Source of the DNA: Clostridia bacterium
GTDB taxonomy: Bacteria; Bacillota; Clostridia; UMGS1810
DNA: 64,000 nucleotides
Reading direction: 5' to 3'
Assembly (NCBI GenBank): GCA_045586905.1
Contig: JAZNBF010000014.1
Span: 15,834-79,833, forward strand
Both the position numbers and the translations under genes were made by a program. Shown piece by piece: positions 8,032-17,858 of the stretch. The number at the start of each line of letters is the position of its first letter. Position 1 is the stretch's first letter. The notes below the pieces were generated by a model that worked only from the letters and a program-made list of their open reading frames with translations, did no database searches and was not told the origin of the DNA.

Positions 8032-8415
8032 TTATCTGCAACCGCAGTCGCCTATTGTGGTTTCAAGACTATCGAAGTGACATTTTTCGGGTGGGAAAAA
8101 TTCATCAACCGGGAAGCTTAATCTGTCGAAAAGCTCACAGGGGTTGTTGTCGATTGACTGAATGCAATCACCCTGAGGGATACAGAAATCGATAACAGGG
8201 ATGCAAAGCTCTACCTTGCGGGTGAGACGGACAATGGTGAAAAGACCGATTGTGACATATACCTTTTTGCCATCGGTTGTATCGACCAAAATGTCGTCAA
8301 ACACACACGAGATGTCTTCGGGAACAGATGACACATCCATTTCACCGCAACAGCAGCATGAGTTATCAGTTGCGTCTACAACTCTTGTTGCAAGACAGAT
8401 GGGGTCTACAACTTC
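8032..8415 (-). CDS. 3' half of a split Cys-rich gene (no start codon of its own at the junction)
   Basis: The track ORF 8032..8340 (102 aa) is open for a further 35 codons upstream. Host-derived reading from the crossover core is EVVDPICLATRVVDATDNSCCCCGE-MDVSS...DCGCR*. It continues in frame from the 5' half at 17333 once 8414-17322 is removed. Confidence 0.75.
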   Translation of the reverse strand, partial: EVVDPICLATRVVDATDNSCCCCGEMDVSSVPEDISCVFDDILVDTTDGKKVYVTIGLFTIVRLTRKVELCIPVIDFCIPQGDCIQSIDNNPCELFDRLSFPVDEFFPPEKCHFDSLETTIGDCGCR

Positions 8416-8427
8416 TGTTTGTGACAG
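8402..8427. repeat. Left junction (attL-like) of the intervening element
   Basis: GGGTCTACAACT-TC-TGTTTGTGACAG. The 10-nt run TCTGTTTGTG (8414-8423) is identical to 17323-17332. The right arm matches the right-junction dyad at 10/12 positions. Confidence 0.7.
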
Positions 8428-9266
8428 CTTTTTTCGCGTTGCTTTTCAAGCGTGAGTTGAGCTTTATCGAAGGTTCTTTTTGATATTATGGCAAGCTGGG
8501 GCAAGTGATGGACATAGTTTTCCTCAATGGGCAAAACCCTTCTTGTGCTTTCCATAAAATCGACCGTCTCGCTTTTGTTGTTGACGAGAATACCACAGTA
8601 TATGGGGTTTGACAAAATCCGTCTGATAGTTTTGGCATTCCATTGTTTGCCAAACTTTGTAGGTGTATTTTTTTCGTTAAGATGGGCGGCAATTTTCCGA
8701 AGTCCCATGTCGGATTTTGTGTAGAGGGAAAAAATCTTTTTTACAACTTTGCTCTCGACTTTATTCACACAAAGTGAGTATGTACCTGTTTTATCGTAAC
8801 CATATATGAGCGGCGGCGTTCTTCCCTTGCCTGCCGAAACCTTTTTGCCGAAAATTATTCTTTTTGATAAGTTGTAGGACTCTTCCTGCGCAATGGCAGC
8901 AAACATTGTGAGGGCAAATTCGGACTCTCCTAAAGTGTCCATGTTGCACGAGAGAAATCTCACATCGATGCCTCTTGATTTGAGTGTTCGTATGCCTACA
9001 AGAAAATCTACCGTGTTGCGCGCAAAGCGGCTGATGTCCTTAACAACGAGCATATCGAAAGTATGATTTTTGCTTTCATCAAGCATTGAAGAAAAAGCCT
9101 CACGGTTTTTAAGAGCTTTGCCGCTGATGCCTCGGTCGGCATAGATTTTAACAAGGTTATAATTGTATTTTTTTGCATATTCTTCGAAGAAAGCTTTTTG
9201 ATTTTCGAGTGATGACAATTGCTTTTCGCTTTTGGTTGACACTCTGCAATAAGCAGCGATATTCAT
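8406..9266 (-). CDS. Serine recombinase (resolvase catalytic domain plus 'recombinase' domain; no zinc-ribbon/coiled-coil)
   Basis: 286 aa with nucleophile motif AAYCRVSTKS and E-helix AIAQEESYNLSKRI. Recombinase-domain signatures are WNAKTIRRILSNPIYCG and LAIISKRTFDKAQ. The ORF reads across the crossover core and stops 5 nt beyond it. Confidence 0.9.
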   Translation of the reverse strand: MNIAAYCRVSTKSEKQLSSLENQKAFFEEYAKKYNYNLVKIYADRGISGKALKNREAFSSMLDESKNHTFDMLVVKDISRFARNTVDFLVGIRTLKSRGIDVRFLSCNMDTLGESEFALTMFAAIAQEESYNLSKRIIFGKKVSAGKGRTPPLIYGYDKTGTYSLCVNKVESKVVKKIFSLYTKSDMGLRKIAAHLNEKNTPTKFGKQWNAKTIRRILSNPIYCGILVNNKSETVDFMESTRRVLPIEENYVHHLPQLAIISKRTFDKAQLTLEKQREKSCHKQKL

Positions 9267-9303
9267 AAAAAAACCTCCTTGCTACAAGTGTATGCAAAGG
9301 AGG
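9267..9303 (-). terminator. Intrinsic terminator after the 397-aa SLH gene; its 3' arm is the recombinase Shine-Dalgarno
   Basis: Minus strand reads CCTCCTTTGC-atacacttgta-GCAAGGAGG-TTTTTTT-ATG. This is a 9-bp stem with one bulge. The U-run serves as the spacer between the SD and the recombinase ATG (9266). Confidence 0.65.
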
Positions 9304-9321
9304 TTTTAAGTTTCTTAAATG

Positions 9322-10515
9322 TTAAGGAATAAGAGTTGTGGGATCTTTTATACCAAACATTATCTCCAAAAGGAAATCTACATCATCGAGTGACATTTCA
9401 GGGTGTGTGGCAAGCTTTGAATAGAAAGCAGACTGAGCTTCTTCATCAAGAGCTTCGTATTTGGATTTTGCAAGTTGAACATCGGAACGGTATGTGTTTT
9501 TTACATAATTTTCAACATAAATCCACTCGCCATCAGCTGCATCGGCAAGAGTTTTCTGAATGGTACCAGCAACAACTTCGCCATCTACCTCGCCGCCTCT
9601 TACGATGTTTAATATGTTACGCTCTACATCACTTAATCTCAAAGTGGAACTGGTGATGACGCCAAGAAGCTTGTTGAGTTTTTCGACAACCAAAGCCTGT
9701 TTTGCGGAGTCAAACTGAGGAGTATCGGGCTCGTCAGGAGTGCTCGGTGTACTCGGAGTGCTTGGTGTACTCGGAGTGCTCGGTGTACTTGGTGTGCTTG
9801 AACCGCCACCGGAGCTTCCGCCACCGGAGTTTCCGCCACCGGAGTTTCCGCCACCACTGAAGCTGCCACCACCAATACTAGCACCTCCGCCAAAGCTTAC
9901 GCCGGGAGTTGTTGTGCTATCCTGAACAAAGTTGGCAAGGAGCAATGAAAGCTCACCTCTTGTCATGTTCTCTGTTGCTCTGAATGTGTTGTTGGCTTCC
10001 AAAGATATCAATCGGTTTGATATTACAGTTTTAACATCATTTTCTGCCCATGCAGAAACGGGATCGGATATTGCTATGTTGCCACCAAGATTGTAAAGTC
10101 CATTTACTCTTACAACTATCGCGCAAGCCTGTTCACGGGTAACCGGAGAATCGCCACGGAAGGTGCCATCTTCAAAGCCATTGATATAGCCGGCTTTTTT
10201 AGCAATTTTCACATGGCTGTAATACCACTTGTCTTCTGTCACATCGGAAAATACTAGAGTGTCCGGCACGGTGTATTTTTTGATGTTATTTATCATCTTA
10301 CAAAGTTCGGCTCTGGAAACACTTCGCTGAGGGGCAAAGGTGCCATCACCATTGCCATTTATTATGCCTGCATTTGCAAGCTTATATATTGCTTTGCCTA
10401 CCGTGGTTGAAGCATCAACATCGGTGAAGGAGATTTTTGTGTCGGCCAAAACGGGAACAATACTGTATGTGGCAATTAATATTACTGCCAAAAAAACTGA
10501 TAGAAACTTTTTCAT
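9322..10515 (-). CDS. Secreted S-layer-homology (3x SLH) protein with Gly/Ser and PST linker
   Basis: 397 aa with a signal peptide (MKKFLSVFLAVILIATYSIVPVLA) and three SLH modules (FTDVD..., FSDVTEDKWYY..., ISDPVSAWAEN...). These are followed by a GGGNSGGGSS run and a (PST)6 run, then a C-terminal domain of unknown function. Confidence 0.85.
   Translation of the reverse strand: MKKFLSVFLAVILIATYSIVPVLADTKISFTDVDASTTVGKAIYKLANAGIINGNGDGTFAPQRSVSRAELCKMINNIKKYTVPDTLVFSDVTEDKWYYSHVKIAKKAGYINGFEDGTFRGDSPVTREQACAIVVRVNGLYNLGGNIAISDPVSAWAENDVKTVISNRLISLEANNTFRATENMTRGELSLLLANFVQDSTTTPGVSFGGGASIGGGSFSGGGNSGGGNSGGGSSGGGSSTPSTPSTPSTPSTPSTPSTPDEPDTPQFDSAKQALVVEKLNKLLGVITSSTLRLSDVERNILNIVRGGEVDGEVVAGTIQKTLADAADGEWIYVENYVKNTYRSDVQLAKSKYEALDEEAQSAFYSKLATHPEMSLDDVDFLLEIMFGIKDPTTLIP
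9737..9799 (-). repeat. Tandem 9-nt (18-nt) coding repeat encoding (PST)n
   Basis: Seven units: ggagtgctc ggtgtactc ggagtgctt ggtgtactc ggagtgctc ggtgtactt ggtgtgctt. They lie inside the 397-aa SLH gene. Confidence 0.9.
9803..9850 (-). repeat. Tandem 15-nt coding repeat encoding the GGNSG-type linker
   Basis: ccgccaccggagctt / ccgccaccggagttt / ccgccaccggagttt, directly adjacent to the PST repeat. Confidence 0.85.
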
Positions 10516-10540
10516 TTTGTCACCTTTTCTTTCTTTGATA

Positions 10541-10572
10541 ATAATAGGCAGAAATTACTTTCTGCCTATTAT
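10541..10572 (-). terminator. 14-bp hairpin downstream of the giant SLH gene (attenuator/terminator candidate)
   Basis: ATAATAGGCAGAAA-ttac-TTTCTGCCTATTAT is a perfect stem, but it has only a weak U-tract on the minus strand. Confidence 0.45.
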
Positions 10573-10583
10573 TTCGCAGTGTC

Positions 10584-13500
10584 TTATTCAACTATTGCAC
10601 GGCTTACAACCACTTTGTTTGAGCCGGCTATAATTTCATATGTGTTACCGTCATCCTTTCTGGAAACCGTAATCTCTTTGCCCTGAACTGTCAAGGTGTA
10701 GGTGTCGGTATTTTTGCGTTCTACTCTTATTGTTTTACCTTTGATGGTTACCTCGTAGGTGTCTTGATCAATCTGAGTAATTCTGTCGATGCTGTCTAAG
10801 CCATCAAACTTGTTGACAATAAGATTGTAGCCTCTGCCAATGAGATTGAATGCTTCGTCGGTTGTGATGTTGATTGATTCGAATGCTTTGTTTACGCCTT
10901 TGCGAAGTTTTGCATAGTCATCGGAAGCATAATCCCTGTTGAATGAGCTTTGTTCGTACCAATCGAGGATTTTGTCTACTTTATCACCGAATTTTTCTTT
11001 AATCTTTTTCTCAACTGCTTTTACAATGTTATTGTCAAGCTTGTCGGGGAGAGCGCCTGTGTCGGCATAGTCACCAACCATATCGGCAATGATATTTGCA
11101 TATTTCACAAAGAGGTCTTCGTAGTCGAGAACAAGCTGGTCAAACTCGTCTTTCGAAAGCTCTTCCGTGTACCATTTCATTGCATCATCGCCAACAAGTG
11201 CTATTGCAACGAGGAGATTGTAGTAATCGGTGTAATCTTTGATTGCATAGCCTGTGCCAACACCTGTGTTTGTGTCGAAAACACATTCAACACTTGTGAG
11301 ACGGACAAGCTCTCTGAGGTACTGATTTTCTCTGTAATAATAGTTGCGTGTAGCTTTTTCGTCCAGAAGTTCTGCAAAACGATCACGGAATACTGCATAT
11401 ACATCGTCCACAAGGTTGATGATGAAATTGAGACCTGTGGAAATGTAAGCTGTTTGACCGTTTGCATTGGCCTGTTTGCCCTCTTCGATGTCTAAGAGGA
11501 GCTCATTGTAGGCTCTTGTGTAGATAGCTTCAAGCTTTGCTCTCGGATAGATTTTGAAAACTTGACTTGGAACCTTGGCAATGAGATCGTCGAAGGTGTA
11601 GTCTTTAACCTGCATTTCAAATGCTGTAAGAATGAAGCTGTTGTCTGATGCGATTTCAAATTCATCATCGCTTACAAGCTGATGTATCATAGTGTCGAGT
11701 ACATCACGATATCTTGACTCAATGATTTCATCGATGATATCGTCGAGCTGATCTGTTTCTCTGAGATGCTCTATTGCATGATCAACATATTCTTCAAAAT
11801 CGGAAAGGTCGCCTTTGTCAACAAAATAGTCAACAGCTTCGTTAATTATTGCTTCACGCTTGTCGGCATCATTATCGAAGAGATAGAGAACAAGCTCAAT
11901 GATAAACTGTTTGGTGTTTAAACTGTCAATGTTTGCAGGACAATAGCCAAATTCATCTTCAACTATTTCTTCGATATTGTCGTTGATGTAGTCTTCGATA
12001 TGACCGTCGATTTCTTCCTCTGTCATACCAAAAGCAAGAAGTTCAGCTTTTATCTCATCATATGTCATAGGATCAAGAACTGCTTTTGCATACTGAACAA
12101 TAAAGTCCATAGCATTTTCTTCGATTGGATCCGTAAACACAATGCCTGAATATTCTGCGATATATTCATTACGCTTTGTGGTGCTTGTTCTGATTTCATC
12201 TTCTACATCAGCTAAAATATGATGTTCAATTTCAGCAAAGAGGCTGTTCATGTCGGTGTAGCCAAGTTCGTGGGCAAGGTTATCATCGATTGTAACAGAT
12301 GAGTTTACCTTGTGCTTTACAACATCAATTACAAGGTCGAATGCATTTTGAGGAACAGCTGCATAGTTTGCATAGGTTATGCCTGCATGCTCTGCAATCT
12401 GTTCTACAAGGAATGTGTCGGCCGGATCTGCAACTCTTTCTTTGGCATCTTCCAGTGCATATTCTTTTGCTTTTCCGAGAATATCGATAGCTGTGTAGCC
12501 GAGTTTTTCCAAAGCATATTCGGAATCATTTTCAAAATAGATTTCTACAAAGCGTGCCATAAGCTCTCTCGGAGTAGATGGCAGGTCATCTGCTTTTTCG
12601 AATTCATCAAATGATGCTGCTTTTACATATGCATCAACCTTTGCCGCATCATCTAAGGATGCACTGAAGTTTGCAAAGAAGTTATCTATTTCACTTTGTG
12701 TCATAGAGGAGAAATCTTCGCCTGTCATAAGCTCAAGTTCTTCATAGTCGCCGCTTGTCTGTGCATCTGATACAACCTTTGTGAGAATCATTTTGAAGAG
12801 GTCGAGAGATGTGGCGGTGTCGGGAACTGATGACTGACCGATAAATTCCTGCAAAACATCGCCATATGCTGATTTTGACGTGTCTCTGATGTCTGTTGCT
12901 ATGATATCACCAAGCTCGTCGACAGCGGCATCGAGCATTGCTGCGCTGTCTACATAGCCTGCAAAATCAGCGAGTTCTTCATATGACATTGTTTGGATAG
13001 AATTGTCGATAAAATCGATGATTATAGAAACGGTTGAAGCAGGTTTAACTTCTGCGTAGGTATAGCCTGAGAAGTCGGTTGTGGAAACAACATGATTGAA
13101 GAAATCGGGATTGTCAAGATCGTCGACGAGAACTGTCAGGATATCATCCTTGCGGGCGTCAAACAGAGCCTGCAAATCGGCATATCCAAGTTCTACTGCG
13201 ATTTCATCAGGTGTCATTGCTTCAAAATGAGACTTAACAACATCGACAATCAAATCGGTTGTAGAAAGTCCGGATGATGGCTTCTGTATATCTTCGAACG
13301 GTGTGCCACGGAAATTATAGTGAACAACATCATCGAAGAAACCATCAGAAGACACCAGATTGTCGGTAATGTATTTTACAAGACGCTTTTTAACATTTGC
13401 TTTGAATGTGGGGTCCGTGTTAATGAGGTCTTTGGTCCATTTGATGATGGTGGGTGTAGCTGCGGAGGTAAGATCTTCATCTGTTACCGTTACATTGTAG

Positions 13501-16301
13501 CCTATAAAATCTGCAAATGCTGTCTTGATAAGGTCAGGATCGTCAAGACTTGTTTCGCATATATCTCTTATCATATCGAGCGCAGTGGCATCGGAGGAGA
13601 TTGCTCTGTCTATTGCTTCTTTAAAGAGGCTCTTGATTTCGGAAACATCGTCAGGATTTGAAGAATTTGCCATTCTTTCAAAATATTCGAAGATGGCGTC
13701 TTTGAGTTCATCATTGTCGCTGAGTGATTCTTTTGCGTTGTCTACAATGTATTCTTCAAGCTCTTCCTTGCCGATGATATCGGCAAATCTTACGAAAACT
13801 TCAAAAGGAAGAATGTTGTTGTTTGCATCTATTATGCCTTTTTCGCGAAGCTTTGAAAGTGCCTTGTTTCCACCTTTCTCTATCTGCTCCTGGAGACTTT
13901 GCTGAAGAGGTGTGGTGCTTGCGGAGAATGAATCCCAAATGAAGTTTTTGAAGGTATCCATTGCTCTTGTTCCTGTAACGGTTCTGTTTCCGGAACCGTC
14001 AACAGTGACAACAGTAGGCTCGTAATATCTTGCAAAGGTAAATCCTGTGCCGATCTTATCGACATAGGCATATATGCTGAGCTGAGGAGATCTTTCTTCA
14101 ACTGTGAGTACGCCCGAAGAATCTACGATTGTGTCAGTAACCAAAGTGGTTGAAGTGAATTTTTCCCATTTGTTTGTTTCGGGATTGTAGTACCAGCCAA
14201 ATTTCACTTTGTGTGTATATTCATTACCTACATATACGGGTGACACACTTGCAGTCTCCCTGTAACCTTCCTGCTCATAGAGTAAAAGGCCATCAAACAC
14301 ACTCTGGGGAACAGATGTGTTTTCGGGGACTATGTGTTCTCCCACCTGACTTCCCAAAGACATGAAGCGTACTGTGTAAAGTGGTGTTGTTTGCCATACA
14401 GCAGTAAATACCCAACCACCCTGTGGATCATAATCTATGATGGTGACATCCTCGCCACCGTTATAAAGATGGCCATTGCAGCTCCATCCAAGGAATACAT
14501 CGTATCCGTTTTCCACCTTGTCGGACTCCGGAAGAGTTATGGTTGAACCATAGGGAGTGGTAGCTACCGGAGGAGTATATCCGAGGATAAATGAACCACC
14601 ATTTGAGAAGTTATATGAAATGTTTATGGAATTTCTTGTATAGTACAATTTGAGAACAAGAGCATTGCCAGCCAAAACAGTGCCGCTTGATTTGCTCAAA
14701 TCAGGATCGGGATTGTAGGTGAAACCTGTAAAATAAGGAGGAACAACGCTGACGGAATCACCTATGTTTTTACCACTTATTGTTGCAGAAGATGTACATA
14801 CATAATCTGAAGCATCAGATGGCACACCACCTATTCTGAGCTGATAATACTCTATTGTGTAGTCAGCGGGGATAGCGGTTTTGTTGTAATAAAGCTTGAG
14901 AACGAGTGTTCCGTTTTTATTTACAACACCTGTTTTTACCTGAGATGCGTGAGAACCGTTATAGTAATAGCCATCTATATCTGTGGTAAGAGGTGCTGCT
15001 TCAACGGTTGCATTGAGAACATCTTTTTTAGTTTGTGTTTTTGAAGAGTCTCTAAGATACTCCACAGGATTTGCACCGTTTTGGAAATAGTGTTCAATCT
15101 TGTATGTATACACTGCAACGAAATCATTTGATGAGTTTACGGTTATTGTGTCACCGGGATTTTTTATTGCACCATATCTGTCACGCCATCCTGCAAAGCC
15201 GGGATAGTTTGTCATATTGGGAGTGGGAAGAGTATAGGTGTTGCCTTTTTTTACTTTATCTGACTTAGACACACCTGCACCCGAAACATTTATAAGATAA
15301 GTTACAGGAGATGATGATGAAGAACTGCCGCCTGTGGAAATGCTGTAATTATCGCCTTTGTATGTTGCCTGTGTAATTTCCTTTATATTTTTAAAAACAT
15401 CTTCCGATTTGTAGTTGTCAAAATGAACTACACCGTTGACGTCTTTAACTACGATGTTTTCGCCCACTGTTGTATTTACAAGTCTTACTGAATCTTCACC
15501 GCCTCGGCAAAGAATGCGGCCTTTTACAGTAACATTTTCAAATACAACGGAGCCAAAGCCCACACCATCACCTATGATGAGGTCGCCCTCTATTGTTACA
15601 TCGCGGAGTATTACACCTGATGCACGGATAATGACTGAGTCAAGACCTGCTTTGGTGTATGTCCCTGAGCTGACATAGTAGGTTTTGATGATGTTGTGCA
15701 TAAGCTGAGCAAATTCCTCACGGGTTATGTATGAGTGAGGGTTGAGATTGGCATTTTCATCACCGTTTATGTAGCCCTTTTGAGAAAGAATTGCAGCATA
15801 AGGCTTTGCCCAGGAGGAGATTGCTCCCGAGTCGGGATGAGCCGAAAGAGCAGAATAGTCGGAAGTTTCTAAAACAAGTGCTCTGGCAATAACTGCAAAA
15901 ACTTCTTCTCTTGTGATGGGATCGTTTGGTCGCATTGTGCCTGTGCCATCACCCTGGAAAGTCTGCATGTTTACAGCTTTGGCAATTTCAGTATAGAACC
16001 AGTCTTTTGGTGATACATCACTAAAAGATGAGATATCGGCCATTTTCGTGGCACCAAATGCACGGTTGATAACCGTTGCCAGTTCGGCACGTGTAAGATT
16101 GCCGGTTGGTTCGATAGTGGTGGTGGTTCGGCCTCTAAGAAGCCCGTTTGCCACAGCCGCTCTCATAGCTTCAGCTGACCATCCGGTAGGGAAATCGGTA
16201 AAGCCTGAAGTGTTGGCTGCAAACGCTTGCAAACACGTTGGCAAAACCATGGTAAAGCTCAGAATAATTGCAAGAGCTTTTTTTATAAAACTTTTTTTCA
16301 T
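10584..16301 (-). CDS. Giant (1905 aa) SLH-anchored surface protein
   Basis: It has a signal peptide and three N-terminal SLH modules, then a beta-helix-like segment. A Listeria/Bacteroides-type repeat follows (GFAGWRDRYGAIKNPGDTITV), then two MucBP-like beta modules (YKIEHYFQN..., YTIEYYQLR...). After that comes about 1200 aa of acidic helical repeats and three short C-terminal beta repeats. Confidence 0.9.
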   Translation of the reverse strand: MKKSFIKKALAIILSFTMVLPTCLQAFAANTSGFTDFPTGWSAEAMRAAVANGLLRGRTTTTIEPTGNLTRAELATVINRAFGATKMADISSFSDVSPKDWFYTEIAKAVNMQTFQGDGTGTMRPNDPITREEVFAVIARALVLETSDYSALSAHPDSGAISSWAKPYAAILSQKGYINGDENANLNPHSYITREEFAQLMHNIIKTYYVSSGTYTKAGLDSVIIRASGVILRDVTIEGDLIIGDGVGFGSVVFENVTVKGRILCRGGEDSVRLVNTTVGENIVVKDVNGVVHFDNYKSEDVFKNIKEITQATYKGDNYSISTGGSSSSSSPVTYLINVSGAGVSKSDKVKKGNTYTLPTPNMTNYPGFAGWRDRYGAIKNPGDTITVNSSNDFVAVYTYKIEHYFQNGANPVEYLRDSSKTQTKKDVLNATVEAAPLTTDIDGYYYNGSHASQVKTGVVNKNGTLVLKLYYNKTAIPADYTIEYYQLRIGGVPSDASDYVCTSSATISGKNIGDSVSVVPPYFTGFTYNPDPDLSKSSGTVLAGNALVLKLYYTRNSINISYNFSNGGSFILGYTPPVATTPYGSTITLPESDKVENGYDVFLGWSCNGHLYNGGEDVTIIDYDPQGGWVFTAVWQTTPLYTVRFMSLGSQVGEHIVPENTSVPQSVFDGLLLYEQEGYRETASVSPVYVGNEYTHKVKFGWYYNPETNKWEKFTSTTLVTDTIVDSSGVLTVEERSPQLSIYAYVDKIGTGFTFARYYEPTVVTVDGSGNRTVTGTRAMDTFKNFIWDSFSASTTPLQQSLQEQIEKGGNKALSKLREKGIIDANNNILPFEVFVRFADIIGKEELEEYIVDNAKESLSDNDELKDAIFEYFERMANSSNPDDVSEIKSLFKEAIDRAISSDATALDMIRDICETSLDDPDLIKTAFADFIGYNVTVTDEDLTSAATPTIIKWTKDLINTDPTFKANVKKRLVKYITDNLVSSDGFFDDVVHYNFRGTPFEDIQKPSSGLSTTDLIVDVVKSHFEAMTPDEIAVELGYADLQALFDARKDDILTVLVDDLDNPDFFNHVVSTTDFSGYTYAEVKPASTVSIIIDFIDNSIQTMSYEELADFAGYVDSAAMLDAAVDELGDIIATDIRDTSKSAYGDVLQEFIGQSSVPDTATSLDLFKMILTKVVSDAQTSGDYEELELMTGEDFSSMTQSEIDNFFANFSASLDDAAKVDAYVKAASFDEFEKADDLPSTPRELMARFVEIYFENDSEYALEKLGYTAIDILGKAKEYALEDAKERVADPADTFLVEQIAEHAGITYANYAAVPQNAFDLVIDVVKHKVNSSVTIDDNLAHELGYTDMNSLFAEIEHHILADVEDEIRTSTTKRNEYIAEYSGIVFTDPIEENAMDFIVQYAKAVLDPMTYDEIKAELLAFGMTEEEIDGHIEDYINDNIEEIVEDEFGYCPANIDSLNTKQFIIELVLYLFDNDADKREAIINEAVDYFVDKGDLSDFEEYVDHAIEHLRETDQLDDIIDEIIESRYRDVLDTMIHQLVSDDEFEIASDNSFILTAFEMQVKDYTFDDLIAKVPSQVFKIYPRAKLEAIYTRAYNELLLDIEEGKQANANGQTAYISTGLNFIINLVDDVYAVFRDRFAELLDEKATRNYYYRENQYLRELVRLTSVECVFDTNTGVGTGYAIKDYTDYYNLLVAIALVGDDAMKWYTEELSKDEFDQLVLDYEDLFVKYANIIADMVGDYADTGALPDKLDNNIVKAVEKKIKEKFGDKVDKILDWYEQSSFNRDYASDDYAKLRKGVNKAFESINITTDEAFNLIGRGYNLIVNKFDGLDSIDRITQIDQDTYEVTIKGKTIRVERKNTDTYTLTVQGKEITVSRKDDGNTYEIIAGSNKVVVSRAIVE

Positions 16302-16328
16302 TGTACTTCCTCCCAGTGCTATATTTGA

Positions 16329-17159
16329 TTAGGTTATTAAACTTAGGTAGTGTGCTTTTTTGAGACTTTTTTCGTTTTGATACGAGGAGCGGATCTGATC
16401 GACAAGTCCCGTGCTTTCTCCTGCATCTTTCAAAAGACCTGTCAGTTTGGAAAGTAATTTGTCAATCTGATCATCACAGTCTCTCTCTAAAGCTGCTGCT
16501 TTTGGATATACCTCGGCAAGCAAAGACTTTTTCTTTGCGGACCTTTGTTCTTTTGTCATATTACGCCACAATGCCTTATACTCTGAAAAGGCCTGATTAT
16601 ATATGACATCAAGCTGACCGACAAAGTTGGCTTTTATAACATAAACCTGAGCTATGCATGCCGATATTTCACTGCTGTTGTCAGGTTTGGAGCTATCTTC
16701 TTCTGAATCGCCTTTGTTTGTTGTTTCTTCGGATTGTGTCGCGTTCTGGTTTGACGCAGCTTCCTGCTTTAGTTGGTTTGCGGTTTCGGCATCTACCTTT
16801 TCACCGCTTTCGACAATTGTTATATTTTTGTCTTCACCAAGCTCAAGCTCTGTACCGAACATTTTTTCAATTGTTGTTTGTTCGGTTATAAGGCTCACGA
16901 GTTCGCTATCGTCGATCACACCTTTTTTGTGAAGTTCTTCTTCAAGCGGTTTTGACGGTCTGACGTTGTATTTCGAATTTTCCTCAAGATAGGTTCCTAC
17001 CTCTTCGGAATTTTCACTCATGAGAGCATCGATGTCGGAGTCGGAATATTTAACCCAGTAATACAGTGCCTTTATGTTTCCAAACTGCCACCAGACAAGG
17101 CAGGCACAAAGGGAAAATATAACGATAATTGATATTAAAATTTTATGTGTTTTTTTCAT
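16329..17159 (-). CDS. Membrane-anchored protein of unknown function (first gene of the cargo operon)
   Basis: MKKTHKILISIIVIFSLCACLVWW is an N-terminal anchor, followed by an acidic low-complexity middle and a helical C-terminus. The track start at 17180 would add MCGDCLE; I prefer ATG 17159. Confidence 0.65.
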   Translation of the reverse strand: MKKTHKILISIIVIFSLCACLVWWQFGNIKALYYWVKYSDSDIDALMSENSEEVGTYLEENSKYNVRPSKPLEEELHKKGVIDDSELVSLITEQTTIEKMFGTELELGEDKNITIVESGEKVDAETANQLKQEAASNQNATQSEETTNKGDSEEDSSKPDNSSEISACIAQVYVIKANFVGQLDVIYNQAFSEYKALWRNMTKEQRSAKKKSLLAEVYPKAAALERDCDDQIDKLLSKLTGLLKDAGESTGLVDQIRSSYQNEKSLKKAHYLSLIT

Positions 17160-17233
17160 TTCTAAGCAATCACCACACATATGTTTTTATACTTATGGGC
17201 ACAATAACCCATAATTAAAACTATACATATTAC

Positions 17234-17262
17234 ATTCTATACTTTTATTCATCTTTTGTCAA
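17234..17262 (-). promoter_or_regulatory. SigmaA-type promoter for the element's cargo operon
   Basis: Minus strand reads TTGACA (17262-17257), a 17-nt spacer, then TAGAAT (17239-17234). It lies about 75 nt upstream of ATG 17159, just inside the right end of the element. Confidence 0.5.
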
Positions 17263-17777
17263 GTGAAACCGAAGATTTTAGCATGCCAAAAAAAGACAAA
17301 TATTGCACAGGTGGCACAAACATCTGTTTGTGCCACAGGAAGATTGTTTTTCTGCCAGAGCTGAATGTCGGCTGCTTCTTCTTTATATTTGGAACTGAAG
17401 GTTTTTGCATTGCCTTCTGAACCGAAAAGAATAACCTTTTTGTCATAGCTTGCAATACCCTCTACCTGAGTAGGTCTGCCAAGACCTGTGAAGACATCAA
17501 GTGTTATGCGAATGAAAATTTTGAGATCGACGCTATAATAGCCTCTGTTGAATGCCACAGGCTCAACATCGGAATAGATCCATATGATTTCTGCTTTCCG
17601 GCATCTTACGCTTGTTGACCTGTCTAAAAGGCTCTGCCCACACTCAGTGAGATATACTCTTAAGTTTTCTATGCATTCTTTATCACGGCACGAGTCATAT
17701 ACTTTTTTGGTCTGTATACATACTTCATTACCACAGTTAGCGTTGTTTGAGTTACAGGAATTTACCCTATCGCTCAT
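17259..17777 (-). CDS. 5' half of the split Cys-rich gene (151 native codons plus 21 read-through codons from the element)
   Basis: MSDRVNSCNSNNANCGNEVCIQTKKVYDSCRDKECIENLRVY...LPVAQT, then the junk tail DVCATCAIFVFFWHAKIFGFT*. A strong SD (GGAGG) lies 8 nt upstream of ATG 17777. Confidence 0.75.
   Translation of the reverse strand: MSDRVNSCNSNNANCGNEVCIQTKKVYDSCRDKECIENLRVYLTECGQSLLDRSTSVRCRKAEIIWIYSDVEPVAFNRGYYSVDLKIFIRITLDVFTGLGRPTQVEGIASYDKKVILFGSEGNAKTFSSKYKEEAADIQLWQKNNLPVAQTDVCATCAIFVFFWHAKIFGFT
17311..17336. repeat. Right junction (attR-like): perfect 12-2-12 dyad
   Basis: GTGGCACAAACA-TC-TGTTTGTGCCAC is a perfect 26-bp palindrome around a central TC. It contains the 10-nt repeat TCTGTTTGTG (17323-17332). 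Confidence 0.75.
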
Positions 17778-17830: not shown

Positions 17831-17858
17831 TATAATATGAGCGAAACCGTTATTTTGT
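17831..17858 (-). promoter_or_regulatory. SigmaK-like (mother-cell type) promoter candidate upstream of the split gene
   Basis: Minus strand reads cACa, a 17-nt spacer, then CATATTATA. This fits the Bacillus sigmaK pattern AC-N16/17-CATAnnnTA. It sits about 55 nt upstream of ATG 17777. Confidence 0.35.

Follow-up and report, generated by a model that had tools for sequence, protein, structure and literature searches.

A family of short serine recombinases without a zinc ribbon, encoded in elements that split a probable exosporium gene of gut Clostridia

Serine recombinases whose genes lie at the border of an element interrupting a sporulation gene of the mother cell have been described as SpoIVCA in the skin element, SprA together with SprB in SPbeta, GirC together with GirX in gin, and CD1231 together with CD1234 in the skin element of C. 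difficile. Precise excision of such sporulation intervening elements restores the open reading frame (ORF) of the host gene (PMC5595907, PMC4191935, PMC5025042), and the recombinases of skin, SPbeta and gin are full-length enzymes for which a small recombination directionality factor (RDF) is required for excision (PMC5595907, PMC4191935). The recombinases of these elements are built of about 500 aa (GirC, 58 kDa) and possess a zinc ribbon and a coiled-coil, and it is generally considered that this zinc-ribbon/coiled-coil module of the serine integrases is essential for DNA binding and for their one-way behaviour, since it recognizes the outer half of the att sites and imposes directionality. 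Here, an intervening element is described in a 64,000-nucleotide stretch of DNA from a Clostridia bacterium (assembly GCA_045586905.1, contig JAZNBF010000014.1, positions 15,834 to 79,833, termed the window below), for which the same restoration of the host ORF by excision is predicted. Its serine recombinase comprises only 286 aa and lacks the module, no RDF candidate accompanies it, and the element differs from the described ones in residing in another, CsxA-like host gene and in belonging to uncultured Oscillospiraceae/Clostridia.

The features of this locus and of its relatives suggest that the enzyme is rather likely to be an excision enzyme derived from the large serine recombinases (LSRs), which has lost the zinc-ribbon/coiled-coil module and works without a directionality factor. 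A wider claim, on which our confidence is evenly divided, is that such enzymes form an undescribed recombinase class, which is constructed from catalytic and recombinase domains only, acts on sites of about 34 bp, excises without an RDF, and would have originated at least twice by the joint loss of the module and of a small gene, in vertically inherited elements gating a spore-surface gene of gut Clostridia. In a literature search of incomplete coverage, neither a natural LSR without a zinc ribbon nor an element in this host gene was found to be described, and the gene-intervening elements that were found are accompanied only by full-length recombinases plus RDFs.

Architecture and distribution of the short recombinase

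The recombinase gene and its two domains are located as follows.

8406-9266, minus strand: recombinase gene, 286 aa, with a catalytic domain, an E-helix and a recombinase domain (RD), without zinc ribbon or coiled-coil
8820-9260, minus strand: Resolvase-type catalytic domain, residues 3-149 (PF00239, E 9e-32), with the nucleophile motif YCRVST and Ser10
8442-8759, minus strand: RD, residues 170-275 (PF07508, E 4e-24, model positions 2-101 of 102)

An earlier, sequence-only reading of the window had proposed that the Resolvase and Recombinase domains are both complete and that the protein stops at the boundary between the RD and the zinc ribbon, for which a Pfam assignment was suggested as a check. 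The assignment agreed with the proposal, since both domains were present, while Zn_ribbon_recom (PF13408) gave zero matches in the 286-aa protein; HTH_62 and HTH_21 matched below threshold only and within the RD. The C-terminal domain is an RD of about 110 aa, and hence is not the helix-turn-helix of about 40 aa that is typical of small serine recombinases. The residues R8, S10, R80 and R83 are invariant across 115 homologues, which also served as the input of an AlphaFold2 (AF2) model with a pLDDT of 88. The model displays the catalytic fold, a long E-helix (residues 115-147) and a mixed alpha/beta RD, and the protein ends at the final RD helix (residues 263-284). In structural comparison it aligns best with the integrases of SPbeta, Bxb1 and phiC31, over their N-terminal halves, and its fold also matches 3g13, 1gdt and 3bvp. 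Among the NCBIfam models, those of CcrA/B/C and XisF (440-560 residues) were matched over their first ~280 positions only, far under their cut-offs. By the PF00239 domain, the invariant catalytic residues and the fold matches, the protein is a member of the serine recombinase superfamily; it shares with the LSRs the RD that follows the E-helix and does not share their zinc ribbon and coiled-coil.

A protein search yielded 5617 relatives at E <= 1e-10, and the closest 115 clusters (90% identity) were aligned. The zinc-ribbon domain is absent from 94 of these clusters, which are 277-323 aa long (median 286) and 56-88% identical to the query, and the other 21 measure 454-501 aa. A scan of species-representative genomes gave 80 loci (numbered with the prefix L below), among which 23 harbor short forms (276-296 aa) and the others either long forms (421-527 aa) or genes truncated at a contig end. 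When the first 272 residues were placed in a neighbour-joining tree, 22 of the short forms grouped into a single deep clade, next to a long-form clade as its sister group, and the two lie nested in other long forms. The remaining short form, that of L065, is nearest to long forms, with which it shares 56-60% identity vs 48-51% with the short clade, and this position suggests that the zinc-ribbon module was lost a second time, independently. L065 (~161-1711, Clostridiales bacterium UBA7011) is an intervening element of minimal size, about 1.55 kb, whose sole gene encodes the 287-aa recombinase; a further protein of 293 aa (P0243) has a tail of the same type.

The ratio of nonsynonymous to synonymous substitution rates (dN/dS) amounts to 0.07-0.14 in the closest pairs of the short clade, synonymous sites being saturated over the clade as a whole, and by domain to ~0.05 for the catalytic domain and ~0.18 for the RD. 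Taken together, on comparative grounds, the short recombinases are a widespread and conserved natural family under purifying selection rather than a one-off truncation. The sequence-only reading had offered a naturally minimal class as one of several options and had recommended a search for homologues with the same domain stop; the 94 short clusters among the closest 115, the deep clade and a dN/dS of about 0.1 favour that option. The observations that would have spoken for a truncation did not appear, in that the close homologues are not all of about 500 aa, no frameshift scar is present, and the tail of the protein contains no zinc ribbon. The relatives of ~480-500 aa, which occupy the same site of the host gene with their zinc ribbon and with a small ORF upstream, had escaped that reading.

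Split host gene and attachment sites

The element, the two fragments of the host gene with a promoter-like motif, and the attachment (att) sites at both junctions are given below.

8414-17324, minus strand: intervening element, about 8.9 kb from crossover to crossover
17325-17777, minus strand: 5' fragment of the split host gene (Cys-rich, CsxA-like)
8032-8413, minus strand: 3' fragment of the split host gene
17831-17858, minus strand: promoter-like motif of SigmaK type, preceding the host gene (AC, 17 nt, CATATTATA)
8398-8431, minus strand: attR, with the element-side P arm at 8416-8431 (in the last codons of the recombinase), the crossover GA at 8414-8415 and the host-side B' arm at 8398-8413
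17307-17340, minus strand: attL, with the host-side B arm at 17325-17340, the crossover GA at 17323-17324 and the element-side P' arm at 17307-17322

In-silico joining of the ends generates a host ORF of 278 aa, to which uninterrupted homologues of 270-285 aa align across 100% of its length with identities of up to 74%, and the crossover falls within an invariant Glu codon. In its arrangement the locus corresponds to the known sporulation gene-intervening elements (skin, SPbeta and gin), as it is inserted inside a coding sequence whose full ORF is restored by joining at the repeat. Nearly all homologues of the recombinase, short and long, are encoded directly upstream of the 3' fragment of this one gene, which is split at one codon. 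In the element-bearing genomes both host halves are free of stops and constrained (dN/dS 0.03-0.09), including the 3' half that has no start codon, and this intactness of a startless half implies that the host gene is still reassembled in the carriers. Some host-protein homologues carry a precomputed Pfam match to CsxA, which is flagged as faint; CsxA is a cysteine-rich protein that builds the basal layer of the exosporium in Clostridium sporogenes and C. botulinum (PMC7333573). Together with a promoter motif upstream of the gene, this faint signal is the basis on which the host gene is called a probable exosporium gene. In the Pfam and NCBIfam copies searched the host protein itself had no match, and an AF2 model of a host homologue (pLDDT 73) had no PDB match with E < 0.03. 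The motif AC-N16/17-CATAnnnT[AG] was detected in 21 of 24 upstream regions of the host gene, where 0.013 per region would be expected, and lies ~55-85 nt upstream in most loci, including an uninterrupted Petroclostridium copy (L081). Judged by the consensus sequences of Bacillus and Clostridioides, it has the form of a sigmaK promoter.

A 10-bp repeat, CACAAACAGA, occurs at 8414-8423 and 17323-17332 and had been read as the shared core of the crossover. The att sites were compared among nine short-form elements with both junctions, under a search constrained to restore the host reading frame, and nine long-form elements were treated alongside. All nine short-form elements are centred on GA, and in several of them the bases flanking GA differ between attL and attR; for this reason exchange is placed at the GA dinucleotide, and by this comparison the supposed 10-bp core, which found no support, is a similarity of the B and P arms instead of a shared core. 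The attP of the window reads GCTGTCACAAACA-GA-TGTTTGTGCCACC, and its P and P' half-sites as well as the B half-site are nearly identical.

The inverted-repeat matching in the short-form attP reaches 56-100% at positions 1-16 and only 0-11% at positions 17-20, while the symmetry of the long-form attP is weak at positions 1-6 and strong at about 7-23, with an outer CCTGCCTA/TAGGCAGG motif. The attP of LSR type, of about 50 bp with outer zinc-ribbon motifs at ~16-24, was accordingly not encountered in the short-form elements. In the structure of LI integrase with attP, the RD spans positions 1-12, and positions 16-24 are read by the zinc ribbon (PMC3783163). The short-form sites have thus shrunk to a length that could be read by an RD on its own.

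The P arm of attR is located inside the 3' end of the recombinase gene, whose last codons are C (8424-8426), H (8421-8423), K (8418-8420), Q (8415-8417), K (8412-8414) and L (8409-8411), followed by TAG (8406-8408), so that the last two codons and the stop are host DNA. The proposal that the ORF reads through the crossover into a stop in host DNA thus holds, as does the prediction of an altered tail in the excised circle, because in-silico joining of the element ends gives ...HKQMFVPPVQYLSFFGMLKSSVSLDKR*, again without a zinc ribbon. It had further been concluded that the C-terminus depends on the integration state. The tail does change; a functional meaning of the change is unsupported. Members of the family differ in the frame in which they read the same att DNA, with two frames in use, 32 short clusters ending in ..CHKQK(L) and at least 27 in ..DTNRS(C/G), and the remaining short clusters mostly terminate ahead of the att site. 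For these reasons the state-dependent C-terminus, while real, is almost certainly a by-product of the P arm lying inside the gene. The long-form recombinase genes likewise end within a few bases of the crossover. Two further ideas were discarded: a zinc ribbon concealed in the tail or in the circle-form tail was not detected, the tails being unconserved, and database variants of 295-323 aa, considered as circle forms, proved either to begin at an earlier start codon or to read further into host DNA.

At L018 (10826-11636), and at the equivalent positions of L011 and L025, ~0.8-0.95 kb of additional DNA lies between the recombinase stop and attR, ending in a GC-rich hairpin (gtaggggtgacacctgcaggtcacccctac) beside the site. 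This DNA is free of zinc-ribbon remnants and may represent a small insertion.

Small-ORF co-loss and a proposed excision mechanism

Upstream of the long-form genes lies a conserved ORF of 28-51 aa, which often overlaps the recombinase start by 4 nt and encodes a short hydrophobic strand, NP(N/P) or PP(K/S), and then a helix of the pattern ..L..(I/L)L..K. A profile constructed from 18 of these ORFs (threshold E<1e-4) matched 45 long-form loci, most of them outside the training set, and the matches are all on the recombinase strand and nearly all within ~450 nt upstream of the gene. Examples are found in L037 (9849-10004), L041 (404-535), L050 (6454-6579), L026 (1407-1532) and about 40 other long-form loci. 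The same profile gave no match in any short-form locus, L065 included, nor in the window. No Pfam family corresponds to the small ORF; its size, its position and its loss alongside the zinc-ribbon module make it a candidate RDF. The remark in the sequence-only reading that no RDF-like gene is visible in the element agrees with both this profile search and the search for conserved small ORFs.

On this basis the following course of excision is proposed. Dimers of the short enzyme would bind the sites of about 34 bp via the RD alone, the enzyme would synapse attL with attR, and strand exchange at the GA dinucleotide would free the element as a circle and restore the 278-aa host ORF. An RDF would be unnecessary, because an enzyme without coiled-coils, for which attP/attB and attL/attR are indistinguishable, could not tell the two pairs apart. 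The direction would be set instead by the geometry of intramolecular deletion and by the timing of recombinase expression, probably in the terminal mother cell. The short enzyme would be the natural equivalent of the LI integrase from which the coiled-coil was deleted, a mutant that excises with all four site pairings (PMC3783163), which shows that the module governs selectivity and direction rather than chemistry.

The control region of the recombinase gene contains one further feature.

9270-9307, minus strand: hairpin that pairs the Shine-Dalgarno sequence of the recombinase gene and is followed by a T-run, with CATACACT (9287-9294) in its loop

The hairpin (-18.7 kcal/mol, z -4.6) resembles a terminator of the upstream SLH cargo gene. 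In it the Shine-Dalgarno GGAGG is paired with an upstream CCUCC, and the loop sequence is a -10-like motif of CATA type. Similar hairpins precede the recombinase in L001, L003, L004, L006, L011, L018, L020, L021 and L025, with varying stem sequences and conserved pairing. In 13 of the 23 short-form loci, the 60 nt ahead of the recombinase start include a CATAnnnT (~0.08 expected per 60 nt), and in 11 of the 23 it lies 25-37 nt upstream. Speculatively, a transcript initiated from a CATAnnnT promoter would be devoid of the anti-Shine-Dalgarno arm of the hairpin.

Several points weigh against an RDF-independent excision enzyme of this kind. The sigma factor of the recombinase promoter is not assignable from sequence, and the link of the host gene to CsxA consists of the faint Pfam signal, with a host model that lacks a PDB match. 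A degenerate attP junction and the exact attB each found 0 matches in metagenome contigs, and neither a circle-form recombinase nor an intact host protein of this species was present in the protein database. An engineered integrase without its zinc ribbon is deficient in DNA binding (PMC3783163), so that the natural short form would have to have compensated for the loss. Finally, a ribbonless protein of 286 aa and 46% identity (P0309) is encoded by a gene that overlaps the start of a full-length 478-aa LSR gene in L082-L084, and the search for partners extended over the window and ~10 kb either side of each locus.

The missing excision products, together with the absence of a domain that is essential in model LSRs, would also fit a decayed remnant, with an inactive recombinase, an immobilised element and a host gene that stays split for good. 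The sequence-only reading had listed such a remnant among its options, and we regard it as highly improbable and have rejected it because of the low dN/dS of the short clade (about 0.1); the invariant catalytic residues, the depth and species richness of the clade, the maintained inverted repeats around GA, and the intact and constrained host halves, including the startless 3' half, stand against it as well.

The poor binding of the ribbonless LI integrase and the P0309 arrangement lend themselves to a different explanation, according to which the short recombinase would provide catalysis and inner-site binding only, and a partner encoded elsewhere would confer site selection or synapsis; this partner might be a second LSR, a host factor that bends DNA, or a zinc-ribbon/coiled-coil protein encoded separately. 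The P0309 arrangement makes a partner-dependent mode a real alternative, and its loci may represent a two-recombinase system; in L082 (4981-7448), and also in L083 and L084, a 63-aa ORF precedes P0309, and spoIIID and Gate-domain genes are located nearby. A partner is nevertheless unlikely in the short clade. A tblastn search with the zinc-ribbon/coiled-coil parts of nine long homologues revealed no such coding sequence in the 64-kb window or, ~10 kb either side, in the 23 short-form loci, and no second serine recombinase was found in the window by tblastn. An alignment that seemed to extend past the stop codon was spurious, as it contained stops and had no real identity. Moreover, only cargo genes are conserved across the short-form elements, the 1.55-kb L065 element contains the recombinase alone, and the contraction of the attP symmetry to the reach of the RD leaves no outer motif for a zinc ribbon.

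The near identity of the P, P' and B half-sites raises another alternative to an excision-only enzyme, namely a fully reversible and still mobile integrase, which would insert as well as excise and would spread the element horizontally into a conserved target. A direction-blind enzyme could in principle integrate too, and uninterrupted copies of the host gene exist in many related hosts. The gene content of the element bears on this alternative.

17234-17262, minus strand: sigma70-like promoter (TTGACA, 17 nt, TAGAAT) immediately within the left end of the element and upstream of the cargo genes
16329-17180, minus strand: cargo gene encoding a 283-aa protein with an N-terminal membrane anchor
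10584-16301, minus strand: cargo gene encoding a 1905-aa SLH-domain protein
9322-10515, minus strand: cargo gene encoding a 397-aa SLH-domain protein

The order of membrane protein, giant SLH protein, second SLH protein and recombinase is kept in 8 of the 9 short-form elements with two junctions, and transfer or phage genes are absent from the element. Within the short clade the distances of the recombinase and of the host gene are correlated (r 0.73, Mantel p ~5e-4). This covariation and the conserved cargo order fit elements that are mainly vertically inherited, for which an enzyme that only excises would be sufficient, and make the mobile integrase quite improbable.

Beyond the cargo genes, no conserved gene or small ORF was recognized in the short-form elements. 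A membrane-anchored protein of about 280 aa likewise comes first in L003, L007, L016, L018, L019, L021 and L074, and across the elements the giant SLH-domain protein ranges from 1603 to 2176 aa (1905 here) and the second SLH protein from 438 to 605 aa (397 here). It is puzzling that giant cell-wall-anchored proteins are carried inside a spore-surface-like gene. The promoter at 17234-17262 is near consensus (11/12 matches) and overlaps the stretch that would code for the circle-form tail. A scan with Rfam returned a tRNA far from the locus as its only match.

Comparison with known recombinases

If the proposed mechanism is true, a recombinase domain alone can specify a site, and co-evolved short sites would be readable directly against the RD. 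The coiled-coil model of directionality could also be tested on a natural case, as the module and the putative directionality factor were lost together on two occasions. For genome engineering, the family might supply compact enzymes (about 290 aa) that act on sites of about 34 bp. In addition, a developmental gene rearrangement, of which no earlier description was found, would be very widespread in uncultured gut spore-formers and would affect a probable exosporium gene.

Among the described systems, the solved structures nearest to the recombinase model are the SPbeta integrase complexes. The closest counterparts by position are the full-length relatives in the same host gene (for example L037, L039, L050 and L035; 457-507 aa), which are 50-61% identical to the short enzyme over the first ~280 residues, share the insertion codon and a recombinase end near the crossover, and are mostly centred on GA. 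Unlike the short forms, they have kept the zinc ribbon and the coiled-coil, an attP symmetry that extends to about position 23, and the upstream ORF of 28-51 aa.

The small serine recombinases, including the gamma-delta/Tn3 resolvases and the Hin/Gin invertases, resemble the short enzyme in combining a catalytic domain with one compact DNA-binding domain, in acting on sites of ~28-34 bp with a central dinucleotide, and in their structures (matches 1gdt and 5cy1). They differ from it in that they bind DNA through a helix-turn-helix of about 40 aa instead of an RD of about 110 aa, and their direction depends on accessory sites or an enhancer; sites of this type were not seen at the present locus, where no search aimed at them was made. 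A parallel of another kind is offered by XisF of the Anabaena fdxN element, since there too a serine recombinase performs a developmentally timed excision in a terminal cell type; the NCBIfam match of the short enzyme to XisF is partial (E 1.6e-23), covering model positions 2-282 of ~465 aa with 83 vs a cut-off of 375 bits.

The behaviour proposed for the short enzyme is that of the engineered LI integrase (A118 family) minus its coiled-coil, which excises with any pairing of sites (PMC3783163). The engineered LI integrase without the zinc ribbon binds DNA poorly, whereas the natural short family has persisted under selection with its sites shifted inward.

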